The notes beneath the pieces are model-generated. The model saw only the letters and a list, made by a program, of their open reading frames with translations. It was not told the origin of the DNA and made no database searches. Below are positions 1 through 55,783 of a stretch of DNA of 64,000 bases, piece by piece (the first letter of the stretch is position 1; each line of letters opens with the position of its first letter). The DNA comes from a virus. Its lineage: Duplodnaviria; Caudoviricetes. A program made the position numbers and the translations under genes. The stretch lies in the IMG/VR virus record IMGVR_UViG_3300048582_000118, positions 687-64,686 of that record; one strand, given 5' to 3'.

Positions 1-1
1 C

Positions 2-1105
2 ATCGGTGGAGTCGGCATATTAGTCCACAAATATATCGGCAGTGGCGACAGTGAAGATCCTGCTAAAATACAAGATGTATTATTCTTAGAGAATAGAGAC
101 AGAAGATACGACGACACCCTGTATGAACTACGGGCCCATTATACTCCGGAGGATGTAGAATACGACTTATCACAATTCGGCATATTCTTATCTAACGATA
201 CAATACGTTTCACGTTTCATTATAACGAAATGATGCGATTCTTAGGAAGAAAACTTATGAGTGGCGACGTAATAGAAATGCCTAATCAGAGAGACACAAC
301 GCTCGACGGTACTGCAATAAATGCATATTACGTGGTACAAGATTCATTGTATGCTGCTCCTGGGTACTCTGTTACGTGGAGGCCCCATCTTTGGAAAGTA
401 AGAGCGAAACAAATGCCAGCTAGCAGCGAATATCAAGACGTACTTGACAAAGCAGCAACAGGCGATAGTGCCGGTGGAGAAGGCGACGGCACCGGGCTGA
501 TGGCGCCGGGTTATAGCGACAATGTTACCGCGGACGGCGACATAGGGTTCGGTTGCAACCATGCAATCACCGATGCGTTAGACAGGTATTGCGAAATATT
601 AGGAATCACCGATCAAAATGTTGCTGAAGCAGCCCAGAATGTATTTTACGATCCAAAGTTCTTTGAATCGGCAAATCTCTGGGTTACTATGAGTCCAGAA
701 GGTTATCCGCTTATAGAATATTGGGCTAGTGGCGACGGGATTCCGCCGAACGGACAACCGTTAGCAGGGATCGGCGTTACATTTCCACCGGATATGAAAG
801 ACGGGGAATATTATCTCCGAGTAGATTATACCCCAGATAGATTATTCCAAAAACAAGGAAATGTTTTTAAACGAATAGAAGACGATCTACGCAGATGGTG
901 GACGCCTACTAATGTGCCGCTTGACGGGTATATTAACAACAACAATATGTCCACACTCGACGACGGAACGGTTATTAGGGAAAAGACCCCGATAAGCAAG
1001 GCAGTGTCGGCTAAAACAGATATATACGCCGCTGATAAAGCTGCTCAAACTAAAGCAGAAGAAAAAAGACAAAGAATTGCAAAAAGATTAGACGGGGCAC
1101 AGTGA
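2..1105 (+). CDS. gp14: Neck/head-completion protein, T4 gp14-like (5' end lies before the window)
   Basis: The frame is open from nt 2 (IGGVGILVHKYIG...IQDVLFLENRDRRYD...YDLSQFGIFLSND), upstream of the track ATG at 230. The motif and the position before a gp15-like gene fit a neck protein. Confidence 0.65.
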   Translation: MGGVGILVHKYIGSGDSEDPAKIQDVLFLENRDRRYDDTLYELRAHYTPEDVEYDLSQFGIFLSNDTIRFTFHYNEMMRFLGRKLMSGDVIEMPNQRDTTLDGTAINAYYVVQDSLYAAPGYSVTWRPHLWKVRAKQMPASSEYQDVLDKAATGDSAGGEGDGTGLMAPGYSDNVTADGDIGFGCNHAITDALDRYCEILGITDQNVAEAAQNVFYDPKFFESANLWVTMSPEGYPLIEYWASGDGIPPNGQPLAGIGVTFPPDMKDGEYYLRVDYTPDRLFQKQGNVFKRIEDDLRRWWTPTNVPLDGYINNNNMSTLDDGTVIREKTPISKAVSAKTDIYAADKAAQTKAEEKRQRIAKRLDGAQ

Positions 1106-1151
1106 GTAAAGAAAATAAAAGATTAAAGTCAATTAACGGAGGCAGTTAGTT

Positions 1152-2593
1152 ATGGATTTTTTTACGATAACCAGGTAAGACGGTACCTGGTACAGTTTAT
1201 GAGGATCTTTTCAAACTACAGCATACAGTCGGGTCCTAACGAAAACGGCACAGTAGTACAATCTCGTGTGCCTATCATATACGGCAACATGTCGTGGATG
1301 GCAGCACAAATTTTAAAAGGAGGAAGTCAAAACACTTCTCTTCCATCGCCCATGATGTCGGCGTGGATCGTTGAAATGAAAATAGCACCTGATCGCAGGC
1401 AAGATCCTGCATTTGAAAGCACCGTTAACGCAATAGAGCGAAATGTAGTAGGAAACGATTACGGAAAGCAAGTAGGAAACAGATACACAATCAACAGATA
1501 CATGCCTGTGCCTTATGATTTAACAATGCAGTTAGATATCTGGACAACAACAACGACTACTAAATTGCAAATATTAGAACAAATTTTAACCATTTTTAAC
1601 CCATCTATACAACTACAACAAAACGCTAACAAGTTAGATTGGACTTCTATATTTGAGGTGGAGTTAACGCAGGTTACTTGGTCTAACACCGGGGTTCCGC
1701 CGGGACCGGATCAGCCTCGCGAAGTTGCATCGTTGCAATTTAGAGTACCTATCTGGATTAATCCTCCTGCAAAAGTAAAAAGAATTAAGCTAATTGAAGA
1801 AATTGTAGTAAATATAAACTCAGTAAAAGATATCCAAGACGCCGAAATAGAAAGGCTTTTAGACCCGGCGGTAATAATGCATTCACCGCCTACACAATTA
1901 ATTGTTACACCAGGTATGCACCGTATTGCTGTAGGCATAGATGGTTTAGAAAAAAATGAAGTAATGTTGTTAACAAAATATGGTAATAAAGACCCTAATC
2001 TATCGTGGAAAAGTTTATTTGAAGAATACGGAAACATGGAATTAAATGAAACTATTTTAAGATTGAAATTAGATCCCGATATAGAAGTTTTTGATAACGA
2101 TGTATTGGGGGTAATATCTGTAGATCCTGCACTACCACAAAACATCGCCCGATTTGAAGTTGACATAGATACCCTTCCTAGTACTATCAGCAGCGGTCCG
2201 GTAAACGACATTATTAATCCGGGAAAAGTGTTCCCTGGGAGGGGGTTGCCGCAGGCTGCTGCTGGTCAAAGATACTTGCTTGTAAGTAATCTCACAAATG
2301 GAGAGGAACCGGCTATCCCAGTTAACACCGGTAGAAATCCTTGGGGAACAATCACAGCATACGAAAACGATATAATTGAATACACCGGTACAGAGTGGTT
2401 CGTAAGTTTTGATAGTACCACCGAAAATAAAAATCAGTATGTAATAAATTTACGCACTATGAATCATTATAAATTCACAGGTAACGACTGGGTGTTTACT
2501 TACCTAGGAGAATACTTCCCTGGTTATTTCCGTTTTGAGAATATACACACAAACGGATCGGGTACTGGAACCAGCCCTTCGGATTTTTGCTAA
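1152..2593 (+). CDS. gp15: Tail sheath stabilizer/tail terminator, T4 gp15-like with C-terminal extension; the start at 1152 needs a -1 shift in the T7 run
   Basis: Motifs RVPIIYG, MPVPYDLTMQLDIW and KLQILEQILTIFNP. SD GGAGG (1138-1142) precedes ATG 1152. The N-terminus MDFF-YDNQVRRYLVQFMRIF is split across frames 0/-1; the track ORF starts at 1199. Confidence 0.75.
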
Positions 2594-2601
2594 ATATTAC
2601 A

Positions 2602-3051
2602 ATGCAAACAACTACAATAAACCACGCTGAAAAGACTGGGGTAGGGACTATTTTCCTATGCTCGAGTACTGCCCGTGTTCTTTTAAATCTAAGAGCTCCA
2701 TATAAAACTTTCTCATTGTGCTGGTCGCTGTGGGGTGGAATGTCAGAAGGCAACGAGACCCCGAAAGAAACCTTACTTAGGGAGTTAAGCGAAGAAATGG
2801 GCACAGTACCGGACATCGAACGTTTTTATCCTTTTGACATTTACGAATCAAAGGATGGCAATTTTCGTTACTATACGTTTGTCTGTGTAGTTGATAAAGA
2901 ATTTACACCTGAGATAAACAAAGAAGCTGTAGGATATGCTTGGACTAAATTAGGTGTGTGGCCTAAACCAATGCACGCTGGCGCAAAGATATCTTTTTGC
3001 AATAAAAAGGCATTAGAAAAGATGCAAATGATACTAGATCAACATCAGTGA
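2602..3051 (+). CDS. NUDIX hydrolase
   Basis: Nudix box GGMSEGNETPKETLLRELSEEMG; likely start ATG 2602. Confidence 0.85.
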   Translation: MQTTTINHAEKTGVGTIFLCSSTARVLLNLRAPYKTFSLCWSLWGGMSEGNETPKETLLRELSEEMGTVPDIERFYPFDIYESKDGNFRYYTFVCVVDKEFTPEINKEAVGYAWTKLGVWPKPMHAGAKISFCNKKALEKMQMILDQHQ

Positions 3052-3065
3052 CGCTAAATATATGT

Positions 3066-3602
3066 ATGACAGCGAAAATCATACAATTTACACATGCTAA
3101 ACTTTCGCGGGAAATACAACAACATATTGCCCGCTCGCGTCAACTTCACCAATCATTATACGCCCAAGATAGTTACGCCGACACGTTCTACGAAGAAAAA
3201 GAATGCTTTAAAGAAGAATTTAACAAAGGTTACAACACCCTTGTAACAAATTTACGAACTAAGAGTGCTAAATATAAATTCCCAACTGTTATGAGTGGTT
3301 ACAGAAAAGACATAAATCCAGTTGATGCACTTTATCAAAATTTGCAAGAAGCACTATTTTGTTTCGATAAAAACAATAAGTTCTACTTATGGATAATTTC
3401 TTTATTTAGAAACGAAGAATGGCTAGATGACTTGTTAGCTGATCTGCACTACGACTGTGTAGTGATATCTAGATTTCAGAAAGACAACTATAAAAATAAG
3501 TACAATGTCGGAATTAACGAATTGCATGTCCTGCAAAACATTAAGTCCAACTTTGCACATTATAAAAAAACATTCGCGATGATGAGAGATTACACTATTT
3601 AA
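3066..3602 (+). CDS. Hypothetical protein
   Basis: Open frame (track 3048..3602); ATG 3066 follows a TAAATA motif; no recognised domain. Confidence 0.65.
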   Translation: MTAKIIQFTHAKLSREIQQHIARSRQLHQSLYAQDSYADTFYEEKECFKEEFNKGYNTLVTNLRTKSAKYKFPTVMSGYRKDINPVDALYQNLQEALFCFDKNNKFYLWIISLFRNEEWLDDLLADLHYDCVVISRFQKDNYKNKYNVGINELHVLQNIKSNFAHYKKTFAMMRDYTI

Positions 3603-46216: not shown

Positions 46217-46219
46217 CAC

Positions 46220-49200
46220 ATGGCAAATAAGACAGATACAATTAAACAGCTACCGGCGATTTTTCAAACAGTCGTCGAACGTAAATTCTTTGATTCTACA
46301 TTCGATCAAGTATTCTCTAAGAAAGATTCCGAAAGATTAACTGGGTATATCGGTCGTCGTATCGGCGGATCTTACAATCCTAACGATGATTTTTATTTAC
46401 CAGAGCCTACTAAGGACCGCACCTGGTATCAGTTAGAACCGATGTCGTCGGTACTTAATGTCGATACTCTGGCTCGTACTAATCAATTCTTTTACGATGA
46501 TCTCATTAACACTATACAATTCTACGGCGGAAACGTCGAAAATCACGACAGGCTGTTTAACTCGTTCTACTACTGCTATTCTCCACCTATAGATGCTGAC
46601 AAGTATGTAAACTATCAGAACTATTTCTGGTTACCAGATCGACTACCTATTATTAGTGTATATAACGTCGATGACACAGCAGTTGAAACTGAAATTTTAG
46701 GCAATGCCCAGTATATTGCGCCGAATGGGTTTAAATTTATTAACTCCATTATTGTTAATTTCCCCGATTCAGTGTCGTATCGAGATCCGTACACAGTGAT
46801 AAACGTGGGACGTTCGATTAATTTTATCCCCGATTATCCAGAAATACTTACAGTAAAGAAGTATAATCTGTTGCCGTGGGACAGCAAAGTATCGGTAGCC
46901 GGCACAACTGTTAATAATAATGCATGGGGTATGCTGCCGTGGGATGCAATTGATTCGACTACAACTACACCGGATTATATTACAATGGAAATGGGGTCCA
47001 TAGATAGGAATGCCTGGTCTAGGACTAACAAGTGGTATCACATTGATACAATAAATGAAGTTGTGTTAGCGACCGGTACTTCTTTTCCGAATAATGCGGT
47101 AAGAGCTCAACGGCCTATCTTGGAATTTTTTAAAAGCATAGAACTATACGGCTCTGGTAGCAACTTTGTAGCAGATGTGAATTACTTCTTAGCTAGCGGT
47201 ACCCCATCGGAATTTGAGTGTAATCCTTTAGTGGAAAATTTTAATACTATAACATTTAACGATGTACAAGGCACCCCTTTATCTGTAGTGAAACTCATTC
47301 CGTCGCTTTCTACAATTTCTGCAGGAGAAACGCTAGTGTTCCCGTGCGATAGTTCGGGAGCATATCTGCTGAATGCAGAGTGGGCAGCCGGCATTAACAA
47401 TAAATGGGATACATTAAACTGGGATTCTTCAGTTATTTTAGACGAAAACGGCGACCCTGTTCCGGTTAAGAACTTTGTTTGGCAAGTAGTTATACGAAAA
47501 GATTCGTACGGAGTAGATACCGTCGTATTAGTTCCTTACATTAGTCAAGCTAACGTAACCAGAGCTTCGTCCCCTGCTGTGGCAGAAATGAAAGACGGCG
47601 ACATTATACTAATTGTTTCGGGTAGAACAAGATTCGAAGATCCGGTTGCCGGGCATTACGGAGAAACGTATTACTTTAGCAACGGACTATGGAGACTCGC
47701 TGCTAACCAAAAAACCGGAAATAATCAACCGCTGAAATTTAATTTATACGACATTGAACACAACAGCTTAGACTCGCCTACCTACCCAGATAGTAACTTT
47801 CGTGGAAGTGAAATATTTTCCTATAAAGTAGACGACGAGCCCAATGCAGTTGTAGATCCTGTGTTAGGTTTTCCTATCGTATATAAATCCTTAGGACAAA
47901 CATCTGACATTATGTTTGAAAATGATTTACAGGTAGATAGATATGAGTACGTAATAGACTCTTCCATTTATCCCATTATCGGCTACTACTACTACAAAAA
48001 AATAACCGGAACCGACGAAGACATATACGAAAATTCGTGGTACTCCGTTGCTAACTTTAGTAAGCAAGATGTAATAGAACACTATGTAGTCATAGATGAA
48101 ACAGACGATGAATTTATTCTAAGTGTCGCCCCGTATGAACAATCTATCGACAATTTAATTGTTAAGGTTGACGGCGTGCCCACCGATAAGTTCACATACG
48201 CTCTTAAAAATGGTAACCCTGTTATAAAAATTACACAAAAGGTTAAAAAAGATCAAGCCATTGAAATAGCTATCTACACATATGATTACTTAACCAGGAC
48301 AGACACCGGATATTTTGAAATACCTCAACAGCTCGAAGCTAATCCAGTTAACGCAGAAGTAAAAGAACAGAGCTTCGGGGAATTCAGCATACACTTCGGT
48401 ACTATCATGGAAAATCAGATAGGGTTCGAGGGAAGTCCACTCGGGTATAATAACTATAGGAATACTGCAAGAGATCCGTCCCTAGGTACAAAGATCTTAC
48501 AAAACGAATCTTCATTACTAAAATCAATGTTCGTATCCGGCAACGATGATCTAAACGCAATACGTGCCATTCGTTTCGCCGGTAACGACTACGTAAATTA
48601 CAGAGCAAAATTTTTAAAAATTGCTACTCAATTGTGGAACAGAGGTTTTAAACCCTTTATACAACAAGGCGATTTAGAACCAGATCTATGGTTAGAAGAA
48701 ATTTTAAAAGTTATTACAGTATCTAGGGAGTTTTCTTCCGCATTTGCATACTCCTACATGCTTGCTCGTTCAGACGTTTTTAGTGCGGCCGAAATCGTGA
48801 ATACGTCAGCTAATGAGGTGTACACTCCGTTACCGGTCGACCTAACCGATCCTCGCAACGCAATGTACTTATATCACGTGACTGATGCCTTCAATAATAA
48901 CATTTACTCTAATAGTCAACTATTAGTTGTGAACGTTGATTACGACATTGTTGATTACACTACCGGTGCGTTTGTGTTTAAACCTGCAGGTCAGGTTCAG
49001 ATAGGCGACAAAATTGCAATTCGTGTGTATAACGATAGTATTCCTGCTTACTTACCTGCTACTCCTACTAAACTAGGTACCACAACTGCGCAAATACCCG
49101 CAATAGTGCTAGATGCTTCGTATGCTACACCAGTATTGATGATTGTAGGTCACGACGGATCTCGTACACCGGTATTCGGCACATACGATACTGCGGCATC

Positions 49201-52200
49201 GGTATTACGGCAAAGGCTCGTTTCGTTATACGAGGACGTTACGCAAGTTGATATACGCGACGTGATGTTACTCGAATTAGAACGAAGAATATATAACGGA
49301 CTTAATCCGAGATTTACAGTAGATAGCGATGTGCTGTTAAGAATCGTAGATATCCGTCCAGGCGCATTTAGACAAACGTACAATCCGGGTATTTGTAAAT
49401 TCGAACCCACAGCTCGCAATAGATATACTCGTAAAGAGTACTACAACATCACCGAATCTTATTTTGCAAAATGGACTGCTGAAAACAAAGCAGACTATCG
49501 CCAAAATGAATTCTTTGATCCGGCAGACTGGAGAACGTGGAATTATAGCAGTCAAACCGACAACGTGCTTTTTATAGGTAACAAATTGCCAGGACACTGG
49601 AAAGGTGCGTTCCGTCAATATTACGACACTGTCTATCCTGCTACTGCACCATGGCAGATGCTAGGTTACGATATTAAACCAGTATGGTGGGAAGAAGAAT
49701 ATGGTCCTTATCCATGGGTAGCTACTAACAAGATGTGGGCAGATTTAGAAGCTGGCATCCCTGCTAGAGGAGATATTAAGGCAGGACAAGCACGATATTC
49801 TCGCCCAGGTTTGTCACAAGTACTACCGGTGTATGCAGATGGATTACCGAAGCCTCTTCCGGAGATATTCGGTATCACTGCGACTGCATGGCAAGGTATG
49901 GCTGACGACTGGGTATACGGGGACGGTTCTCCAGTAGAGCAAGCGTGGTACGATTCGCCGGAATATAAATTCTCTGAGCTAGAATTCTTTTACCTGATGC
50001 GCCCTGCTGAGTTCGGCGAAAAGTTCTGGAATCCAGGGCAAGTTCGTTACTTCGGATATCAGCTTCTAGACGAAGTAACAAAAGAGCGTCAAAAGAATTC
50101 TACACTTGTAGTACACGGCGAAGTTGTTGACAATGAGGTTACGTACAAGTCGGGATATCAGCAATATATCACTGATTATTTGCTGTTTTTGGGCAAAGAT
50201 ATCACAGTAGATTTCGGTGACAAAGTAAGACGCCTTGACGTTCAGTTAGGGCATAAAATGGCGTCTTTTACTGATAAAGATACAATGCGTGTTAGACTGC
50301 AAAGCGCAGGCGCAGGGACATCTTTAGGTGGCCTAATCATACCAACTGACAACTATCAGGTGAACTTATATCAAGGCGCATCTATAGCTGATTACGTGTA
50401 CAGCGGAGTCATTATTAGGGCAAGGGCAAACGGCGGGTTTAGTGTCTACGGGTATGATTTGTTAAGTCAGTCGTTTAAAATGCTTCCGCCAATTACAAAC
50501 GGAAAACAACAGCGTGTTAACTCTGGTGGCACACCTGCACCTTTTACTGATTTTGAATTTAACCGAGCATATAAAGCCGGTGACATAGTAAGATATAACA
50601 CTAGATTTTATTCTTCTAAGAAAGATCAAATAGCGACCATATTTAATTCTAAGGATTGGTATAAACTAGCGGCACTGCCTCAAACCGGTGGACAAACCGT
50701 AATATGGTACCAAGAGAGGGCAGCCGACGTTGCTATCATACCTTACGGAACAACATTCCACAACGTGCAAGACGTATATGACTTTTTAATAGGATATGGT
50801 CAGTGGCTAGAATCAATGGGCTGGGTATACGACTCAATTAACGAGCTTAATCAAGTGTTAGATTGGAAAAACTCGGCCGATCAATTCCTATTCTGGGTAT
50901 CTAGTAACTGGGCGCCAGACGAATCTTTGTTTGTTAGTCCAGGCTCGGAAGCACCTACATTACGTGTCAAGGAAGGTTATCCCGACTCAGTTGAAAAAAT
51001 GTCCAACGGGGTGTACAGCATACTAAACAAGTTTGGTGTAGCAATACAACCAGCAGATACAGTGGTCAATCGCGAAGATAAATTTATACAAGTTATCCCT
51101 AAAACACCGGGCGAAGGAATCTATTATTTACGCATAAGTGCAAAAGAGACAGAACACATACTAACTTTTGATAACACAACTAGCTTCAACGATATCGTAT
51201 ACGATCCTTTATTGAATGTTAGGCAAGAAAGGCTAGAATTTACCGGTACCAGAACATTAGGCTGGTTCGGAAAAATGGAGGCCGGTGGTTACTTAGTTAG
51301 GAATAGTAGACTAGTGCAAAACTTTGATAACATTGTCGAAAGCATCCGTTACTACTATGACTCAGATAAGCCACTTGACAATCCTGAGATTGACGCAGGT
51401 GCTAGACATTTAATCGGATACGTAAACAGAGAATTCTTAGATCAATTAGATGTATCCGATGATGTACAATTTAATTTCTATCAAGGATTCATTAGGCAAA
51501 AAGGTACAGCTAATGCCATTACTAAGTTGCTTCGCTCCGACGAAATTCAAGATAAAGACGAAATTAGCTTCTTTGAAGAATGGGCTATCAAGATGGGAGA
51601 ATATGGTGGCACAGCTGAAAACTTGTCAGTGGAGTTTGTATCTAAATTTGACGACGTAAGAACTGATCCGCAAATCTATAGATTAGATCATAAGCATTCC
51701 GGCGAAGGCGTCATTAAGAAGATTGTAATATTTAACGCTGAAGAACTATACAACGAACCACCAGAAATCTTAGTTTCTTTGCCTTACACTATCAATCCGC
51801 TCATATATGATCCGGAGAATCCGCCAGAGCCGACGTATAGCAATAAGATTGCAAAAGCAGTAATTGACAGGACCACTCGTAAGCTCATAAGGATAGATGT
51901 CATTGATAATAGCCATGTGTACACTGTAGCACCGTCTGTTCTAATTGTGCCTAAGTCCAATGCAGTGACCGGGTCATCTACATTTGCAACCACTGCTAGA
52001 TCGGTGACTTATGACAACAATCTAACTAATAATGATAAAGCATACGCGGTGTTGCAAATGGACATCGTTACCGATGAACAATTAGACACTATTATAGATA
52101 TTGATATAGACGACAATGTTAATTGGATATATTATCCTCCCGAGTATTCAGTTCCTCTTACAAATAAGTCGTGGACTAGTTACGAGACTCCTAATGCGGG

Positions 52201-55200
52201 ATATGTGCATTTAGATGATGTAGATTACATTGCGTTTGACAACGACGCATTGCATGTACTATGGAAAGAAGAAATCCCGACCAACGGAGATACTGTATGG
52301 GTGGCTAAAACTTCTCAAGAAAAATGGGGAGTATACATTGTTAAGCCTGCAGACAACACGTACGGATTAGAAGCAGATGCAGATGGCGTAATATCATTTA
52401 CTGTTGACTCATCAGCATTCGGCGGCGTCTCCGTATTGCAAAACACTAACATCTGGTACAACTCTTCATTTACTATACCTCCTGCAACAGTATTACCACA
52501 GACACCTTTTGTCGGTGTAAAAGGTGTAGTTAATATTAAATTACCCGATGGTAAAAATACTCTGTATGACTTTGCAGGATCACTGAACGAGACAGCAACA
52601 GCTTATGTTTATCATTTAATAAATCAAAATGGCACTATAGTGAACCTTGATGAAGAATTTGCCGATATTGATTTATCGGCGGTCGAGTATTCGCAGTTAA
52701 TTAATTTAAGATTTAAAAATCTTTCAGAAGTGCCCAATATATTAACGGGGCCTTATTTTTGGATTGATGAGGTTCCTGTAACCGCTGGCGTGCCTGCACA
52801 CGGCACTAAGTGGGTAGTTTACGAAAGTAATAAAACAGTTCCTCACAGAGAGCAAATATTACTAATTGACACGCAATTGTACAATAATGCCTACTTGCGT
52901 AATAGAGCCACTGATAACTTTATTTCGTATGCATCTATATGCGATCCTTTTAAAGACGTGATGTTAGGACAAATATCTCAGAATATTACATATAGAACAT
53001 CTAACGATCCTGCACGTTACAATAACGCTAGCAACCCGAGATTAATAAACACTAACTTGATGTTCGGTGATAAACAATTGGGCCTATTATGGTGGGATCA
53101 ATCTACTATTAGGTACTTGCAGTACGAGCAATCACCTGACCTGATAAAACTCGCCGATGATCCTGCTAAAGAAAGAACTGCGGTATTAGAATACAATCGC
53201 ACAAATTGGGCTAAGCCGTTCCCAGGTTCTGTTGCAAACGTATACGAGTGGACAGAAAGTATATATCTACCGGCCGACTATAACGGCACAGGCACACCTA
53301 GGAATACCACCGACTACGTGTCTATCATAACACAGAACAATGTTACTGGCATGCCGCAAGTAAAATACTATTACTGGGTTAATAGAGCAGAAGATATTCC
53401 TAATAATGCTAGTAGAACATTATCTGCTCGTAATGTTGCTGCATTGATAATGAATCCGGACTTTTTACTGCAACCTTGGTACGCCCCGGTACAAGAAACT
53501 GGTCACTCGACAAGTTATATATTCGGTGTAACGAACCCTACGTTAACAAATCAAAACGTTAATATTGAGATTGATTATAAATTAAGAGCAGACGCCAACG
53601 AAGTTCATATGCAATGGCTATTACTAGACGAAGGTAATAGATTCTCTATCGTGCCCGATCAGCACTGGGATAAGATGGTAGACTCGTTAGTGGGATACAC
53701 CGTAGAGTTACCTAAAAATGATTTCCCGCACGGTGTATCTGTTTCGGACAATACTGTAGTCTTGCCGGTGCCTGCGTATAATCTAAGCGAACAACAGCAA
53801 CTAGGCATAGGAATACGCCCGCAACAAACCATGTTCCGAGATATTCGTGCTGCTAGAAAGATTATGACACAGTCCGTCAATGCTTTGATGACTACTGTTA
53901 GAATCTGGGCCGATAGGTTTGACGGATGGGATAATAACGTAACTTCTAATCAATTCTGGGGTTATGTTGACTGGTTCCTGCCCGGTTACGATGCTGATAA
54001 CACTATTGCAAAATTGCAGGTAAACGATTACGACCAGCTGTACAAGTTAGTGAATAAAGTGCCCGATGGGCAACTAGTTAAGGTATTCCCGTTTATGCCG
54101 GATATCAACGACAAGTACGAAATACATCAATATGTTGCCGAAGTTGAAGCATTCATATTAGTCCGCAAAGAAGATGGCACCATTGCATTTAAGGACACTG
54201 TATTTTCTGAAATATACTCTAGCACACTTAGAAGAGAGATACGAGAACTGCTAACTGCACTAAAGGAAAACGTATTTATCGGCGACTTTAAGGTATACGA
54301 AAATTTAGTATTCTTTGCAATGATGAACTATACATTTAGTGAACAAGATGGAGTAGACTGGGCGTTTAAAACTTCCTACATATCGTTTATACAAGATAAT
54401 ATTATACTGAAGCAAAATCCTATATTCCGTTCGGACTTGTTGACTGAATTTTTAAATTACATTCAAGAAGCTAAACCATTCCGTACAAAGGTCCGTGAAA
54501 CCACTACTATCATTGCGACTGCAATTGACACTGCCGAAGGTACTGCATACGATGACGCAATGGGAGATTTTGCGTGCGTGCCGTTGCCTGTTCCGTTCCC
54601 GGATCCTGTTTATCCCGGTGAAATAGTAACAGAAACATGTACGTGGATTAACGATTCTATCACCGAAACGTTGCGCAACTTTAAATTAACTGTTGATTTT
54701 AGTCGCACAAACTGCTCCAATCCGTCGGCTGTGTGTAAGCAGCAGATAATTGATGCAGGGCCATTTGTACTAGGCTGGGACGCATTCTATAATACAGAAT
54801 CGTTCTTAATGGGCTGGAATACAGTTACTCACTTGCCGGGCACAACATTTATATTCTTGTATTTCGGCTGGGACGACTCAGCATGGGACGATGTGAATTT
54901 CCCTATTAACGTCATTAAGTATCCAGACGAAGGGGTAGTGAATACTTCGAATGTTATGATTGATGCTGAGGATTTTATATACCCATACGCTTCTCCGGAG
55001 GAGTTGGTCCCGTTAGATCCAGTAGAAAGTATTGTAATGTTATCCACATACGACAACGTAATTGAACCTGCCGATGAATCACAGGCTGCAATTGATGCAG
55101 CAGAAAGGCATAGCGTCGGTTTTAGAATAAACCTTAATCCGATGACATGGGTAGAGTATGTGAGAGTTTCCGACAAGTTCACAACAAGACTAGCAGTCGA

Positions 55201-55783
55201 CTTAACACCGGACTCGACTATTATTCAGCTCACAGATGCAAGCATGTTTAGTCAGCCTGAACCAGGGATAGCTAATGTAATATGGGTAGACGCTAAGACC
55301 GAATTAATCGACGACAACGGCAACCCTGTACTTGACGACCAAGGTAATGTTGTAACAGTTTCGTGGGGCTCCGAAAGAATTGAGTATCGCGGCAAGACAG
55401 GGAACACATTGTTTGACATTACCCGTGGAACTATGGGAACCACGATTGTAGCTTTTGCCAGTGCCGCAGTAAGTAAAGTAAGTGACGGAAACATGTCGCA
55501 ATACATAGTTAGACCAGACAATGTCACTGTGTCGAATCAAGGGACAATTCTTGCATCGGGTGAAATTTTGCCTGGATCAGTGACGCTTACTGCCAACAAT
55601 TACTATCCGCCGACCGTCGAAGGAGACCCGATCGTAGTAGAAAGTTCGAATATACAAGTACCTAACGTAGATCCGTGGTTCAAACTATACAAGGCTAATT
55701 CGGGTCTACCGGAAGATAATGCGTTAATTGCGTCTACCGAACAGGCTAGATTCTTGTTTAATTTACCATACGACAATAACTGA
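46220..55783 (+). CDS. Very large (3187 aa) baseplate wedge protein, gp7-position analogue
   Basis: Follows gp6; N-terminal LP.IFQT and YQLEP, FYQGFIRQKGT.NAI, C-terminal YIQEAKPFRTK and ERIEY...RGT.GT. Confidence 0.65.
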   Translation: MANKTDTIKQLPAIFQTVVERKFFDSTFDQVFSKKDSERLTGYIGRRIGGSYNPNDDFYLPEPTKDRTWYQLEPMSSVLNVDTLARTNQFFYDDLINTIQFYGGNVENHDRLFNSFYYCYSPPIDADKYVNYQNYFWLPDRLPIISVYNVDDTAVETEILGNAQYIAPNGFKFINSIIVNFPDSVSYRDPYTVINVGRSINFIPDYPEILTVKKYNLLPWDSKVSVAGTTVNNNAWGMLPWDAIDSTTTTPDYITMEMGSIDRNAWSRTNKWYHIDTINEVVLATGTSFPNNAVRAQRPILEFFKSIELYGSGSNFVADVNYFLASGTPSEFECNPLVENFNTITFNDVQGTPLSVVKLIPSLSTISAGETLVFPCDSSGAYLLNAEWAAGINNKWDTLNWDSSVILDENGDPVPVKNFVWQVVIRKDSYGVDTVVLVPYISQANVTRASSPAVAEMKDGDIILIVSGRTRFEDPVAGHYGETYYFSNGLWRLAANQKTGNNQPLKFNLYDIEHNSLDSPTYPDSNFRGSEIFSYKVDDEPNAVVDPVLGFPIVYKSLGQTSDIMFENDLQVDRYEYVIDSSIYPIIGYYYYKKITGTDEDIYENSWYSVANFSKQDVIEHYVVIDETDDEFILSVAPYEQSIDNLIVKVDGVPTDKFTYALKNGNPVIKITQKVKKDQAIEIAIYTYDYLTRTDTGYFEIPQQLEANPVNAEVKEQSFGEFSIHFGTIMENQIGFEGSPLGYNNYRNTARDPSLGTKILQNESSLLKSMFVSGNDDLNAIRAIRFAGNDYVNYRAKFLKIATQLWNRGFKPFIQQGDLEPDLWLEEILKVITVSREFSSAFAYSYMLARSDVFSAAEIVNTSANEVYTPLPVDLTDPRNAMYLYHVTDAFNNNIYSNSQLLVVNVDYDIVDYTTGAFVFKPAGQVQIGDKIAIRVYNDSIPAYLPATPTKLGTTTAQIPAIVLDASYATPVLMIVGHDGSRTPVFGTYDTAASVLRQRLVSLYEDVTQVDIRDVMLLELERRIYNGLNPRFTVDSDVLLRIVDIRPGAFRQTYNPGICKFEPTARNRYTRKEYYNITESYFAKWTAENKADYRQNEFFDPADWRTWNYSSQTDNVLFIGNKLPGHWKGAFRQYYDTVYPATAPWQMLGYDIKPVWWEEEYGPYPWVATNKMWADLEAGIPARGDIKAGQARYSRPGLSQVLPVYADGLPKPLPEIFGITATAWQGMADDWVYGDGSPVEQAWYDSPEYKFSELEFFYLMRPAEFGEKFWNPGQVRYFGYQLLDEVTKERQKNSTLVVHGEVVDNEVTYKSGYQQYITDYLLFLGKDITVDFGDKVRRLDVQLGHKMASFTDKDTMRVRLQSAGAGTSLGGLIIPTDNYQVNLYQGASIADYVYSGVIIRARANGGFSVYGYDLLSQSFKMLPPITNGKQQRVNSGGTPAPFTDFEFNRAYKAGDIVRYNTRFYSSKKDQIATIFNSKDWYKLAALPQTGGQTVIWYQERAADVAIIPYGTTFHNVQDVYDFLIGYGQWLESMGWVYDSINELNQVLDWKNSADQFLFWVSSNWAPDESLFVSPGSEAPTLRVKEGYPDSVEKMSNGVYSILNKFGVAIQPADTVVNREDKFIQVIPKTPGEGIYYLRISAKETEHILTFDNTTSFNDIVYDPLLNVRQERLEFTGTRTLGWFGKMEAGGYLVRNSRLVQNFDNIVESIRYYYDSDKPLDNPEIDAGARHLIGYVNREFLDQLDVSDDVQFNFYQGFIRQKGTANAITKLLRSDEIQDKDEISFFEEWAIKMGEYGGTAENLSVEFVSKFDDVRTDPQIYRLDHKHSGEGVIKKIVIFNAEELYNEPPEILVSLPYTINPLIYDPENPPEPTYSNKIAKAVIDRTTRKLIRIDVIDNSHVYTVAPSVLIVPKSNAVTGSSTFATTARSVTYDNNLTNNDKAYAVLQMDIVTDEQLDTIIDIDIDDNVNWIYYPPEYSVPLTNKSWTSYETPNAGYVHLDDVDYIAFDNDALHVLWKEEIPTNGDTVWVAKTSQEKWGVYIVKPADNTYGLEADADGVISFTVDSSAFGGVSVLQNTNIWYNSSFTIPPATVLPQTPFVGVKGVVNIKLPDGKNTLYDFAGSLNETATAYVYHLINQNGTIVNLDEEFADIDLSAVEYSQLINLRFKNLSEVPNILTGPYFWIDEVPVTAGVPAHGTKWVVYESNKTVPHREQILLIDTQLYNNAYLRNRATDNFISYASICDPFKDVMLGQISQNITYRTSNDPARYNNASNPRLINTNLMFGDKQLGLLWWDQSTIRYLQYEQSPDLIKLADDPAKERTAVLEYNRTNWAKPFPGSVANVYEWTESIYLPADYNGTGTPRNTTDYVSIITQNNVTGMPQVKYYYWVNRAEDIPNNASRTLSARNVAALIMNPDFLLQPWYAPVQETGHSTSYIFGVTNPTLTNQNVNIEIDYKLRADANEVHMQWLLLDEGNRFSIVPDQHWDKMVDSLVGYTVELPKNDFPHGVSVSDNTVVLPVPAYNLSEQQQLGIGIRPQQTMFRDIRAARKIMTQSVNALMTTVRIWADRFDGWDNNVTSNQFWGYVDWFLPGYDADNTIAKLQVNDYDQLYKLVNKVPDGQLVKVFPFMPDINDKYEIHQYVAEVEAFILVRKEDGTIAFKDTVFSEIYSSTLRREIRELLTALKENVFIGDFKVYENLVFFAMMNYTFSEQDGVDWAFKTSYISFIQDNIILKQNPIFRSDLLTEFLNYIQEAKPFRTKVRETTTIIATAIDTAEGTAYDDAMGDFACVPLPVPFPDPVYPGEIVTETCTWINDSITETLRNFKLTVDFSRTNCSNPSAVCKQQIIDAGPFVLGWDAFYNTESFLMGWNTVTHLPGTTFIFLYFGWDDSAWDDVNFPINVIKYPDEGVVNTSNVMIDAEDFIYPYASPEELVPLDPVESIVMLSTYDNVIEPADESQAAIDAAERHSVGFRINLNPMTWVEYVRVSDKFTTRLAVDLTPDSTIIQLTDASMFSQPEPGIANVIWVDAKTELIDDNGNPVLDDQGNVVTVSWGSERIEYRGKTGNTLFDITRGTMGTTIVAFASAAVSKVSDGNMSQYIVRPDNVTVSNQGTILASGEILPGSVTLTANNYYPPTVEGDPIVVESSNIQVPNVDPWFKLYKANSGLPEDNALIASTEQARFLFNLPYDNN

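Follow-up and report, generated by a model that had tools for sequence, protein, structure and literature searches.

The window, that is, the whole 64,000-nucleotide (nt) stretch analyzed here (positions 687–64,686 of IMG/VR record IMGVR_UViG_3300048582_000118), makes up most of a 64.7-kb contig with a completeness rating of 18%, and its source is a large myovirus. It carries a gp15-like gene whose start codon and body lie in different reading frames, and the start region of this gene is the subject of the present analysis. The gene body occupies positions 1163–2593 of the plus strand (476 codons plus the stop) in the frame at -1 relative to the start codon. The encoded protein matches PF16724 (T4-gp15_tss; E 9e-29, 100.8 bits with a cut-off of 25, profile positions 2–215 of 245) as well as PHROG 11196 and PHROG 227, the latter described as 'tail sheath stabilizer' (7.8e-27). 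On these sequence matches, the gene is assigned to the PF16724 family as a gp15-like tail sheath stabilizer/tail completion gene. With M-D-F-F placed in front, the product would total 480 amino acids (aa); the closest full-length relatives are 80–82% identical and contain 482–486 aa, and relatives of 480–486 aa share the N-terminus M[DN]FFYDNQVRRYL. Among cultured phages, homologues with 44% and 37% identity are found in Pseudomonas phage PA5oct and Agrobacterium phage Atu_ph07, respectively, where the gene is annotated in frame. The order of virion structural protein, gp15-like gene and NUDIX hydrolase is common to the window and PA5oct, the first gene in window positions 2589–3068 being the NUDIX hydrolase. 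No near-identical DNA was found in cultured phages by megablast, and tblastn with the window protein and three other proteins of the same frameshift type identified no cultured phage above 44% identity.

T4 gp15, the reference member of PF16724, forms a hexamer. The N-terminal F-Y-x-x-x-x-R-R-Y region of the window protein aligns from profile position 2 of this family, but the protein reaches ~480 aa and, like its counterparts in PA5oct and Atu_ph07, has an extended C-terminal part. In one clade (L038, L039, L042, L048, L049, L053, L054, L066, L068 and L070), the open reading frames (ORFs) of the gp15 homologues comprise ~750 codons, a long C-terminal addition compared with the usual ~460–480 codons.

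All elements of the start region lie on the plus strand. A Shine-Dalgarno (SD) sequence, GGAGG (1138–1142), is located 9 nt 5′ of an ATG (1152–1154) and forms a predicted anti-SD duplex of -9.5 kcal/mol. The ATG opens a mini-ORF, ATG GAT TTT TTT ACG ATA ACC AGG TAA (1152–1178, stop at 1176–1178), which is all that unshifted ribosomes would translate (MDFFTITR*). The last base of its codon 2 together with codons 3 and 4 forms a slippery run, T_TTT_TTT, of exactly seven T (1157–1163; T7 hereafter, and T8 for a run of eight). This heptamer is in the phase of the start frame while the functional ORF continues in the -1 frame, as in a -1 frameshift signal, and the SD lies 14 nt 5′ of it, within the 9–14 nt that characterize SD-stimulated signals. 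Six nt 3′ of the run, a hairpin of 8 base pairs (bp), ACCAGGTA-AGACGG-TACCTGGT, spans 1170–1191 with a folding energy of -11.9 kcal/mol. The -1 frame is closed upstream by a TAA (1124–1126) and stays open through the stop at 2591–2593; its next ATG, GTG or TTG is the ATG at 1199–1201, which we do not regard as the real start. The original prediction, made from this DNA alone, had named the SD, the ATG, the T7 run, the mini-ORF and the hairpin, and each was recovered at these positions. Its statements that the -1 frame lacks a start codon between 1124–1126 and 1199 and that the full-length gp15 homologue requires a -1 frame change on T7 at codons 3–4 are likewise supported, and the N-terminus that it expected after such a change, MDFFYDNQVR, is exactly that of the in-frame relatives. 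A scan of window positions 1–3600 for promoters and terminators revealed nothing beyond the expectation from shuffled sequence. An explanation by a phage tRNA was discarded, as the window contains no tRNA genes.

The run itself is reproducible. Contigs from three further runs, belonging to three studies (X1, X2 and X4), span 1152–1191 without gaps and with T7 intact, differing from the window by single-base changes elsewhere only, at a low depth of 2.85–5; four independent data sets thus assemble to T7 for this type of phage. No read of the raw-read run X21 covers the stretch. The window contains 19 homopolymer runs (at least 7 for A/T, at least 6 for G/C), and the one at 1157–1163 is the only one located at a frame break, the other 18 breaking no ORF. 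At 46217–55780 on the plus strand, a single open frame of ~3188 codons is intact despite the A7 run that it contains.

The arrangement recurs in a dozen or more lineages of related phages. Searching IMG/VR for T7 ahead of the conserved Y-D-x-Q-x-R-R-Y codons returned 31 loci, 27 of which share the layout of the window: a GGAGG-type SD, 6–9 nt, ATG, GTG or TTG, GAT or AAT, and TTT TTT A. In every one of the 27, the gp15 frame is the -1 frame and lacks a start codon downstream of the stop that precedes it; together, they represent 13 distinct sequence contexts besides that of the window, from many metagenomes. The other four T7 loci are in frame, two reading M-A-E-F-F-Y-D from ATG (L019 and L021) and two with the same A-E-F-F-Y-D run behind GTG (L029 and L034). 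The matching T8 pattern was found at 35 loci, all of them in frame. The T7 pattern yielded no match in genome contigs, and a scan of metagenome contigs gave one distant locus only (L006, on the same contig as L003). The shift site is thus conserved across diverged relatives, together with the selection on the downstream frame described below. Among the matches listed, the conserved Tyr is exactly the fourth codon after the start codon in all 14 frameshift contexts, and longer N-termini occur in 13 of the 33 canonical in-frame T8 contexts. A nearby stop in the start frame was considered as a further conserved element and rejected: the start-frame ORF is mostly 8–12 codons long, but L013 and L018 have 22 codons there and L017 has more than 40. 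The original prediction had also considered that the relatives might all be in frame, which is correct for 116 of the 120 best protein hits but not for all relatives; the four truncated hits are the window's own gene call and P0013, P0014 and P0102, which may be further truncated frameshift cases.

Of 146 start regions, those with unique full-length proteins (106) were used for the trees; duplicates, ORFs of fewer than 400 codons and ORFs that run off the contig were left out. In a well-supported clade (L013, L014, L016, L017, L018, L008, L009, L076, L077, L080 and L081), 7 of the 11 sampled genes need the frameshift, and the frameshift form may be ancestral there. The remaining members show a T run broken as TTC TTC (L080) or TTT TGG (L081), an in-frame T7 behind GAC (L076), or an ATC start (L077).

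The pattern of substitution identifies the -1 frame as the coding frame immediately after the run. Over the 12 codons that follow it, 15 distinct frameshift-type genes differ by 563 synonymous and 282 non-synonymous changes in the gp15 frame, versus 53 and 852, respectively, in the start frame, whose peptide is not conserved. Seven residues (Y, D, Q, R, R, Y and Q) are invariant in all 15 genes, each encoded by several codons. Three sister pairs in which both genes need the shift (L008/L009, L017/L018 and L025/L037) have a non-synonymous divergence (dN) of 0.08–0.14 at a synonymous divergence (dS) of 1.4 to saturated, with dN/dS around 0.05; these are working genes in which the frame break has been kept for a long time. 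The substitutions show purifying selection on the gp15 frame starting with the T run and indicate that the stretch between the run and Met 1199 is translated. The Pfam alignment agrees: it begins at the codon at 1160, equivalent to profile position 2 of 245, and since the match starts at the run, the residues between the run and Met 1199 belong to the domain. Six of the 15 frameshift-type genes have Ile at the position of Met 1199, so a downstream start is no general solution.

The SD is the element that accompanies the frameshift state most closely. A strong SD motif is present in 15/15 frameshift-type genes and in 2/88 in-frame relatives, including none of the 21 in-frame T8 genes, and the median SD-anti-SD duplex is -10.9 kcal/mol in the former compared with -3.95 kcal/mol in the in-frame genes. 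The distance between the end of the SD and the heptamer is 11–14 nt in all 15. Strong SDs are otherwise rare in these phages: with starts crudely taken as the first ATG of each ORF of at least 120 aa, -8 kcal/mol or lower is reached by 5.7% of other ORF starts in contigs of frameshift-type loci and 4.1% in those of T8 loci, and in the window by ~10% of the other called ORF starts. Their rarity at other ORFs of the same contigs indicates that the SD is special to the gp15 start and not a general habit of the phage. The association also holds across the phylogeny: the SD tracks the frameshift in 7/7 phylogenetically independent pairs on a FastTree phylogeny of 103 rows (p about 0.016) and in about 8/8 on a quick IQ-TREE phylogeny (p about 0.008) of 48 rows hand-picked from the 106 (all 15 frameshift-type genes, their neighbors and a few outgroups); the pair tests were run without L077, L078 and L108, all of which lack a canonical start. 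By eye, the spacers between SD and start fall into at least four unrelated sequences. The upstream SD had been proposed as part of the signal, and it proved to be the sole companion element found every time.

Most in-frame T8 relatives (L038–L072) start differently: their ATG shares bases with the stop codon of the structural gene upstream (TAATG) and is preceded by no more than a weak SD, which suggests that translational coupling is the usual start mode of the gp15-like gene. A further group carries an in-frame ATA, ATC or ATT where relatives have ATG, with no canonical start nearby (L077, L078, L157, L192, L225, L234, L250, L366, L385, L391, L397, L401, L402, L407 and L411). Among the matches listed, such codons occur in 5/118 census loci and in 7/40 T8 contexts, plus L077, L078 and L366. 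In one clade, ATA, ATC and ATT variants all stand behind the same AGAGGCAYCCAAA leader, and these codons look like a kept non-AUG start of the gp15-like gene. Weak starts thus look like a theme of this gene, which fits the idea of a throttle on its expression.

The hairpin does not show a comparable association. In the window it has a z-score of -2.47, 5 of 200 shuffled sequences folding equally well. Across loci, the stem at this position measures 2 bp in the median frameshift-type locus and 1 bp in the median in-frame locus (p 0.18); it is absent (0 bp) from 4/15 frameshift-type loci, and an 8-bp version is present in an in-frame relative (L050). The 35 nt that follow the run fold at a somewhat lower energy in frameshift-type than in in-frame loci (-4.7 versus about -2.6 kcal/mol; p 0.004 when relatedness is ignored). 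The stem arises because the Q-V/I and Y-L codons are reverse complements around the R-R codons, and the hairpin is largely a by-product of the Q-V-R-R-Y-L codons. The stem comparison speaks against a conserved stimulator and does not support the proposal that the hairpin is a conserved part of the signal; it may nevertheless make a weak contribution to the slip, in the window phage in particular. The comparison with -1 signals of the dnaX and insertion sequence (IS) type, drawn in the original prediction, is supported for the heptamer and the upstream SD; the hairpin fits it in the window, where its 6-nt spacer lies within the usual 5–9 nt, but shows no clear conservation among relatives.

We consider it very probable that recoding of some kind restores the frame of this gene during expression. 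For the mechanism, we favor, with moderate confidence, SD-assisted -1 slippage of the ribosome with tandem tRNA-Phe at codons 3–4. Ribosomes would initiate at ATG 1152 and place tRNA-Phe on codons 3 and 4 (UUU UUU), where a share of them would slip by -1 on U_UUU_UUU. After the slip, UAC GAU AAC would be read and the product would begin M-D-F-F-Y-D-N-Q, the normal N-terminus of the protein family, while ribosomes that do not slip would terminate after eight codons. At this point the pairing of 16S rRNA with the initiation SD, 11–14 nt behind the slippery run, probably persists, and it would drive the backward slip as the internal SDs of dnaX and IS elements do; in the window, the effect may be enhanced by the hairpin that lies 6 nt downstream. 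Overall, a protein of which each virion requires few copies would be produced at a low and fixed level, in which case the purpose would be the setting of dosage. Such a throttle fits the weak ATA, ATC and ATT starts found at the same position elsewhere in the family.

Published properties of frameshift signals are consistent with such a slip. SD-stimulated -1 frameshifting operates at SD spacings of 9–14 nt, and the SD-anti-SD hybrid persists through 5–7 nt of translation (PMC5009743, in excerpt). Long spacers between the SD and the P site are reported to slow translocation and favor back-slippage (excerpt of a preprint, 10.1101/2020.04.16.045807), and H_HH.U_UU.Y is among the efficient -1 motifs in E. 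coli, U_UU.U_UU.Y being efficient given a stimulator (PMC4066793, in excerpt). The SD spacing of 11–14 nt, the efficient heptamer class and the report on spacers and back-slippage together lead us to favor the SD-assisted slip. A more specific version, which we put forward only tentatively, is an initiation-coupled frameshift: the helix of SD and rRNA by which the ribosome is positioned at the start codon would persist for two codons and pull the mRNA back by one base on U_UUU_UUU.

Several observations weigh against SD-assisted ribosomal slippage. The sequence evidence fits slippage by the ribosome and by RNA polymerase alike, and a strong SD could merely compensate a low-yield step of either kind. 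In E. coli constructs, U_UUU_UUU is far less shift-prone than A_AAA_AAG (excerpt of PMC5009743). The frameshift state is rare, accounting for 1 of 120 loci in a census by the downstream motif and 1 of 80 protein-alignment loci among the matches listed (L079, on the same contig as L008), and for at most ~4.5% of the at least 596 family loci in IMG/VR; it has changed at least eight times on the tree, which also fits a mutable, tolerated switch. The anti-SD of the hosts may differ from the one behind the duplex energies. The SD and T7 are ~12 nt apart and would move together in recombination, so the independent-pair counts may overstate independence. GTG or TTG starts occur in 9/15 frameshift-type versus 2/88 in-frame genes (about 5/7 in the pair test for non-ATG starts, p about 0.06), which the model does not predict, and the hairpin is not conserved among frameshift-type relatives.

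The strongest alternative, though still rather unlikely, is transcriptional slippage, in which a host or phage RNA polymerase adds one U on the A7 template to give in-frame U8 messages, and the strong SD only offsets their small share. Well-studied bacterial cases generally have runs of nine or more, compared with which a run of seven is short. Slippage by the polymerase would generate the same product (MDFFYD), would leave the hairpin dispensable and would account for the fact that the one element that never varies is the pure homopolymer. It provides no reason for an SD in the 9–14 nt range, although that spacing is forced by the gene layout; it leaves the position of the run at codons 3–4 in all 14 contexts unexplained, and likewise the enrichment of GTG and TTG if the SD merely raises output. 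Transcriptional rescue of interrupted genes has a literature of its own (e.g. PMC4256274, in excerpt). In E. coli genes, each of the three frames contains fewer UUUUUUU and AAAAAAA than expected, and polymerase slippage or a high rate of indels has been suggested as the reason (PMC4066793, excerpt).

An improbable alternative is that the T8/T7 tract is simply hypermutable, and that there is no evolved signal; T7 genomes would then be leaky or 'off' variants kept alive by background slippage or by T8 genomes that complement them within the population. The repeated changes of state and the rarity of the frameshift form noted above are in keeping with this, as is the fact that the closest relatives differ in state (the window and L040, a T8 gene with 81% identity; L022 and L041; L010 and L056). 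A 'savior indel plus low-level compensatory frameshifting' is a recognized class (PMC5009743, in excerpt), and non-programmed frameshift suppression reaches 1–10% in E. coli (PMC10861913, in excerpt). The tolerated-indel explanation is opposed by the recovery of T7 from all four data sets for this phage type and by the persistence of the state through a dS of 1.4 or more in the three sister pairs at dN/dS around 0.05. In addition, the frameshift-type T7 is invariably accompanied by a strong SD, a feature seldom seen elsewhere in the same contigs, which indicates that selection has shaped its surroundings.

It is very unlikely that the protein starts at Met 1199 or later behind an untranslated leader: ATG 1199 does open a 464-codon ORF, and the public call P0001 (1298–2593, 431 aa) begins even later, at an internal Met, but there is no SD before 1199, the Pfam domain begins at the run, the 12 preceding codons are conserved as protein, and the Met is absent from 6/15 frameshift-type relatives. 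Least credible of all is an assembly or sequencing error of a true T8, for which the 35/35 in-frame T8 loci with the same codons and the low depth of the three additional contigs might be cited, since the same T7 is read without gaps in three other runs and in 13 other contexts (27 loci) under -1-frame selection, no other homopolymer of the window breaks a gene, and an error would show no correlation with SD strength or start codon choice.

If frame restoration by SD-assisted slippage is correct, a strong SD combined with a slippery run at codons 3–4 would constitute a self-contained module that sets a low output. The module would have arisen or been kept in at least 7–8 lineages of this phage family, and it would be interchangeable with ATA, ATC or ATT starts or with an SD-less start that overlaps the upstream stop. 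A low-copy structural gene would then have several interconverting ways to keep its translation low, and the pairing of strong SD and T7 suggests that transitions pass through a hypermutable tract in two steps, one compensating the other. Existing models of SD-stimulated frameshifting involve internal SDs far from the start, and the gp15-like genes offer a natural, recurrent test bed for whether the helix of the initiation SD, known to last for a few codons, can alone drive a -1 slip right after the start. For annotation, the consequence is that gene callers truncate this essential virion gene (431 versus about 480 aa), P0001 dropping ~49 N-terminal residues of the domain from the databases. 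In practice, a strong SD followed by a U- or A-run at codons 2–4 would become a pattern to avoid or to exploit in expression constructs.

The arrangement can be compared with several known systems. It shares an in-phase heptamer and an SD-like stimulator (10 nt away in dnaX) with E. coli dnaX, which produces tau and gamma, and in the window alone also a stem-loop a few nt downstream (PMC5009743, in excerpt). The two systems differ in that the gp15 site is at codons 3–4 whereas the dnaX site is deep inside the gene, that the gp15 stimulator is the initiation SD itself, that the heptamer is U_UUU_UUU instead of A_AAA_AAG, and that the gp15 stem-loop is not conserved; moreover, the unshifted gp15 product would be a non-conserved peptide of eight residues, leaving only one useful protein. 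The -1 frameshift of IS3/IS911-type transposases is another relative: an estimated 56% of IS elements have an SD as a major 5′ stimulator, and in one IS element a single SD serves both initiation and frameshifting (PMC5009743, excerpt). That double-duty SD starts a second ORF while boosting the shift that fuses two proteins, whereas in the gp15-like gene one ribosome would use the same SD to start and then slip two codons later.

Among tailed phages, a parallel is the gpG/gpGT-type tail assembly chaperone of lambda, where a -1 slip in a tail-module gene sets the ratio of two functional proteins with a common N-terminus. In the gp15-like gene, also a tail-module gene, the shift would be obligatory for the sole functional product and would occur at its very start. 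Transcriptional slippage likewise restores a one-base deficit at an A/T homopolymer in some messages, as at the A9 of Thermus dnaX, the T9 of Shigella mxiE and the Ebola GP gene, where 7A becomes 8A; the bacterial runs are longer than that of gp15, and an SD would there be only compensatory. The G7 savior indel of herpes thymidine kinase is similarly an indel in a run of seven with a low but sufficient slippage output (PMC5009743, excerpt), whereas the gp15 state has a considerable age (dS above 1), recurs and comes with a strong SD dedicated to it. A literature search returned no earlier report of a frameshift in a gp15 or tail sheath stabilizer gene, and none of a -1 shift at codons 3–4, through the initiation SD itself, or obligatory for the sole product; nor was the arrangement found in a cultured phage. 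The slippery heptamer, the 5′ SD stimulator and the 3′ stem of the window are each known as parts of other systems.

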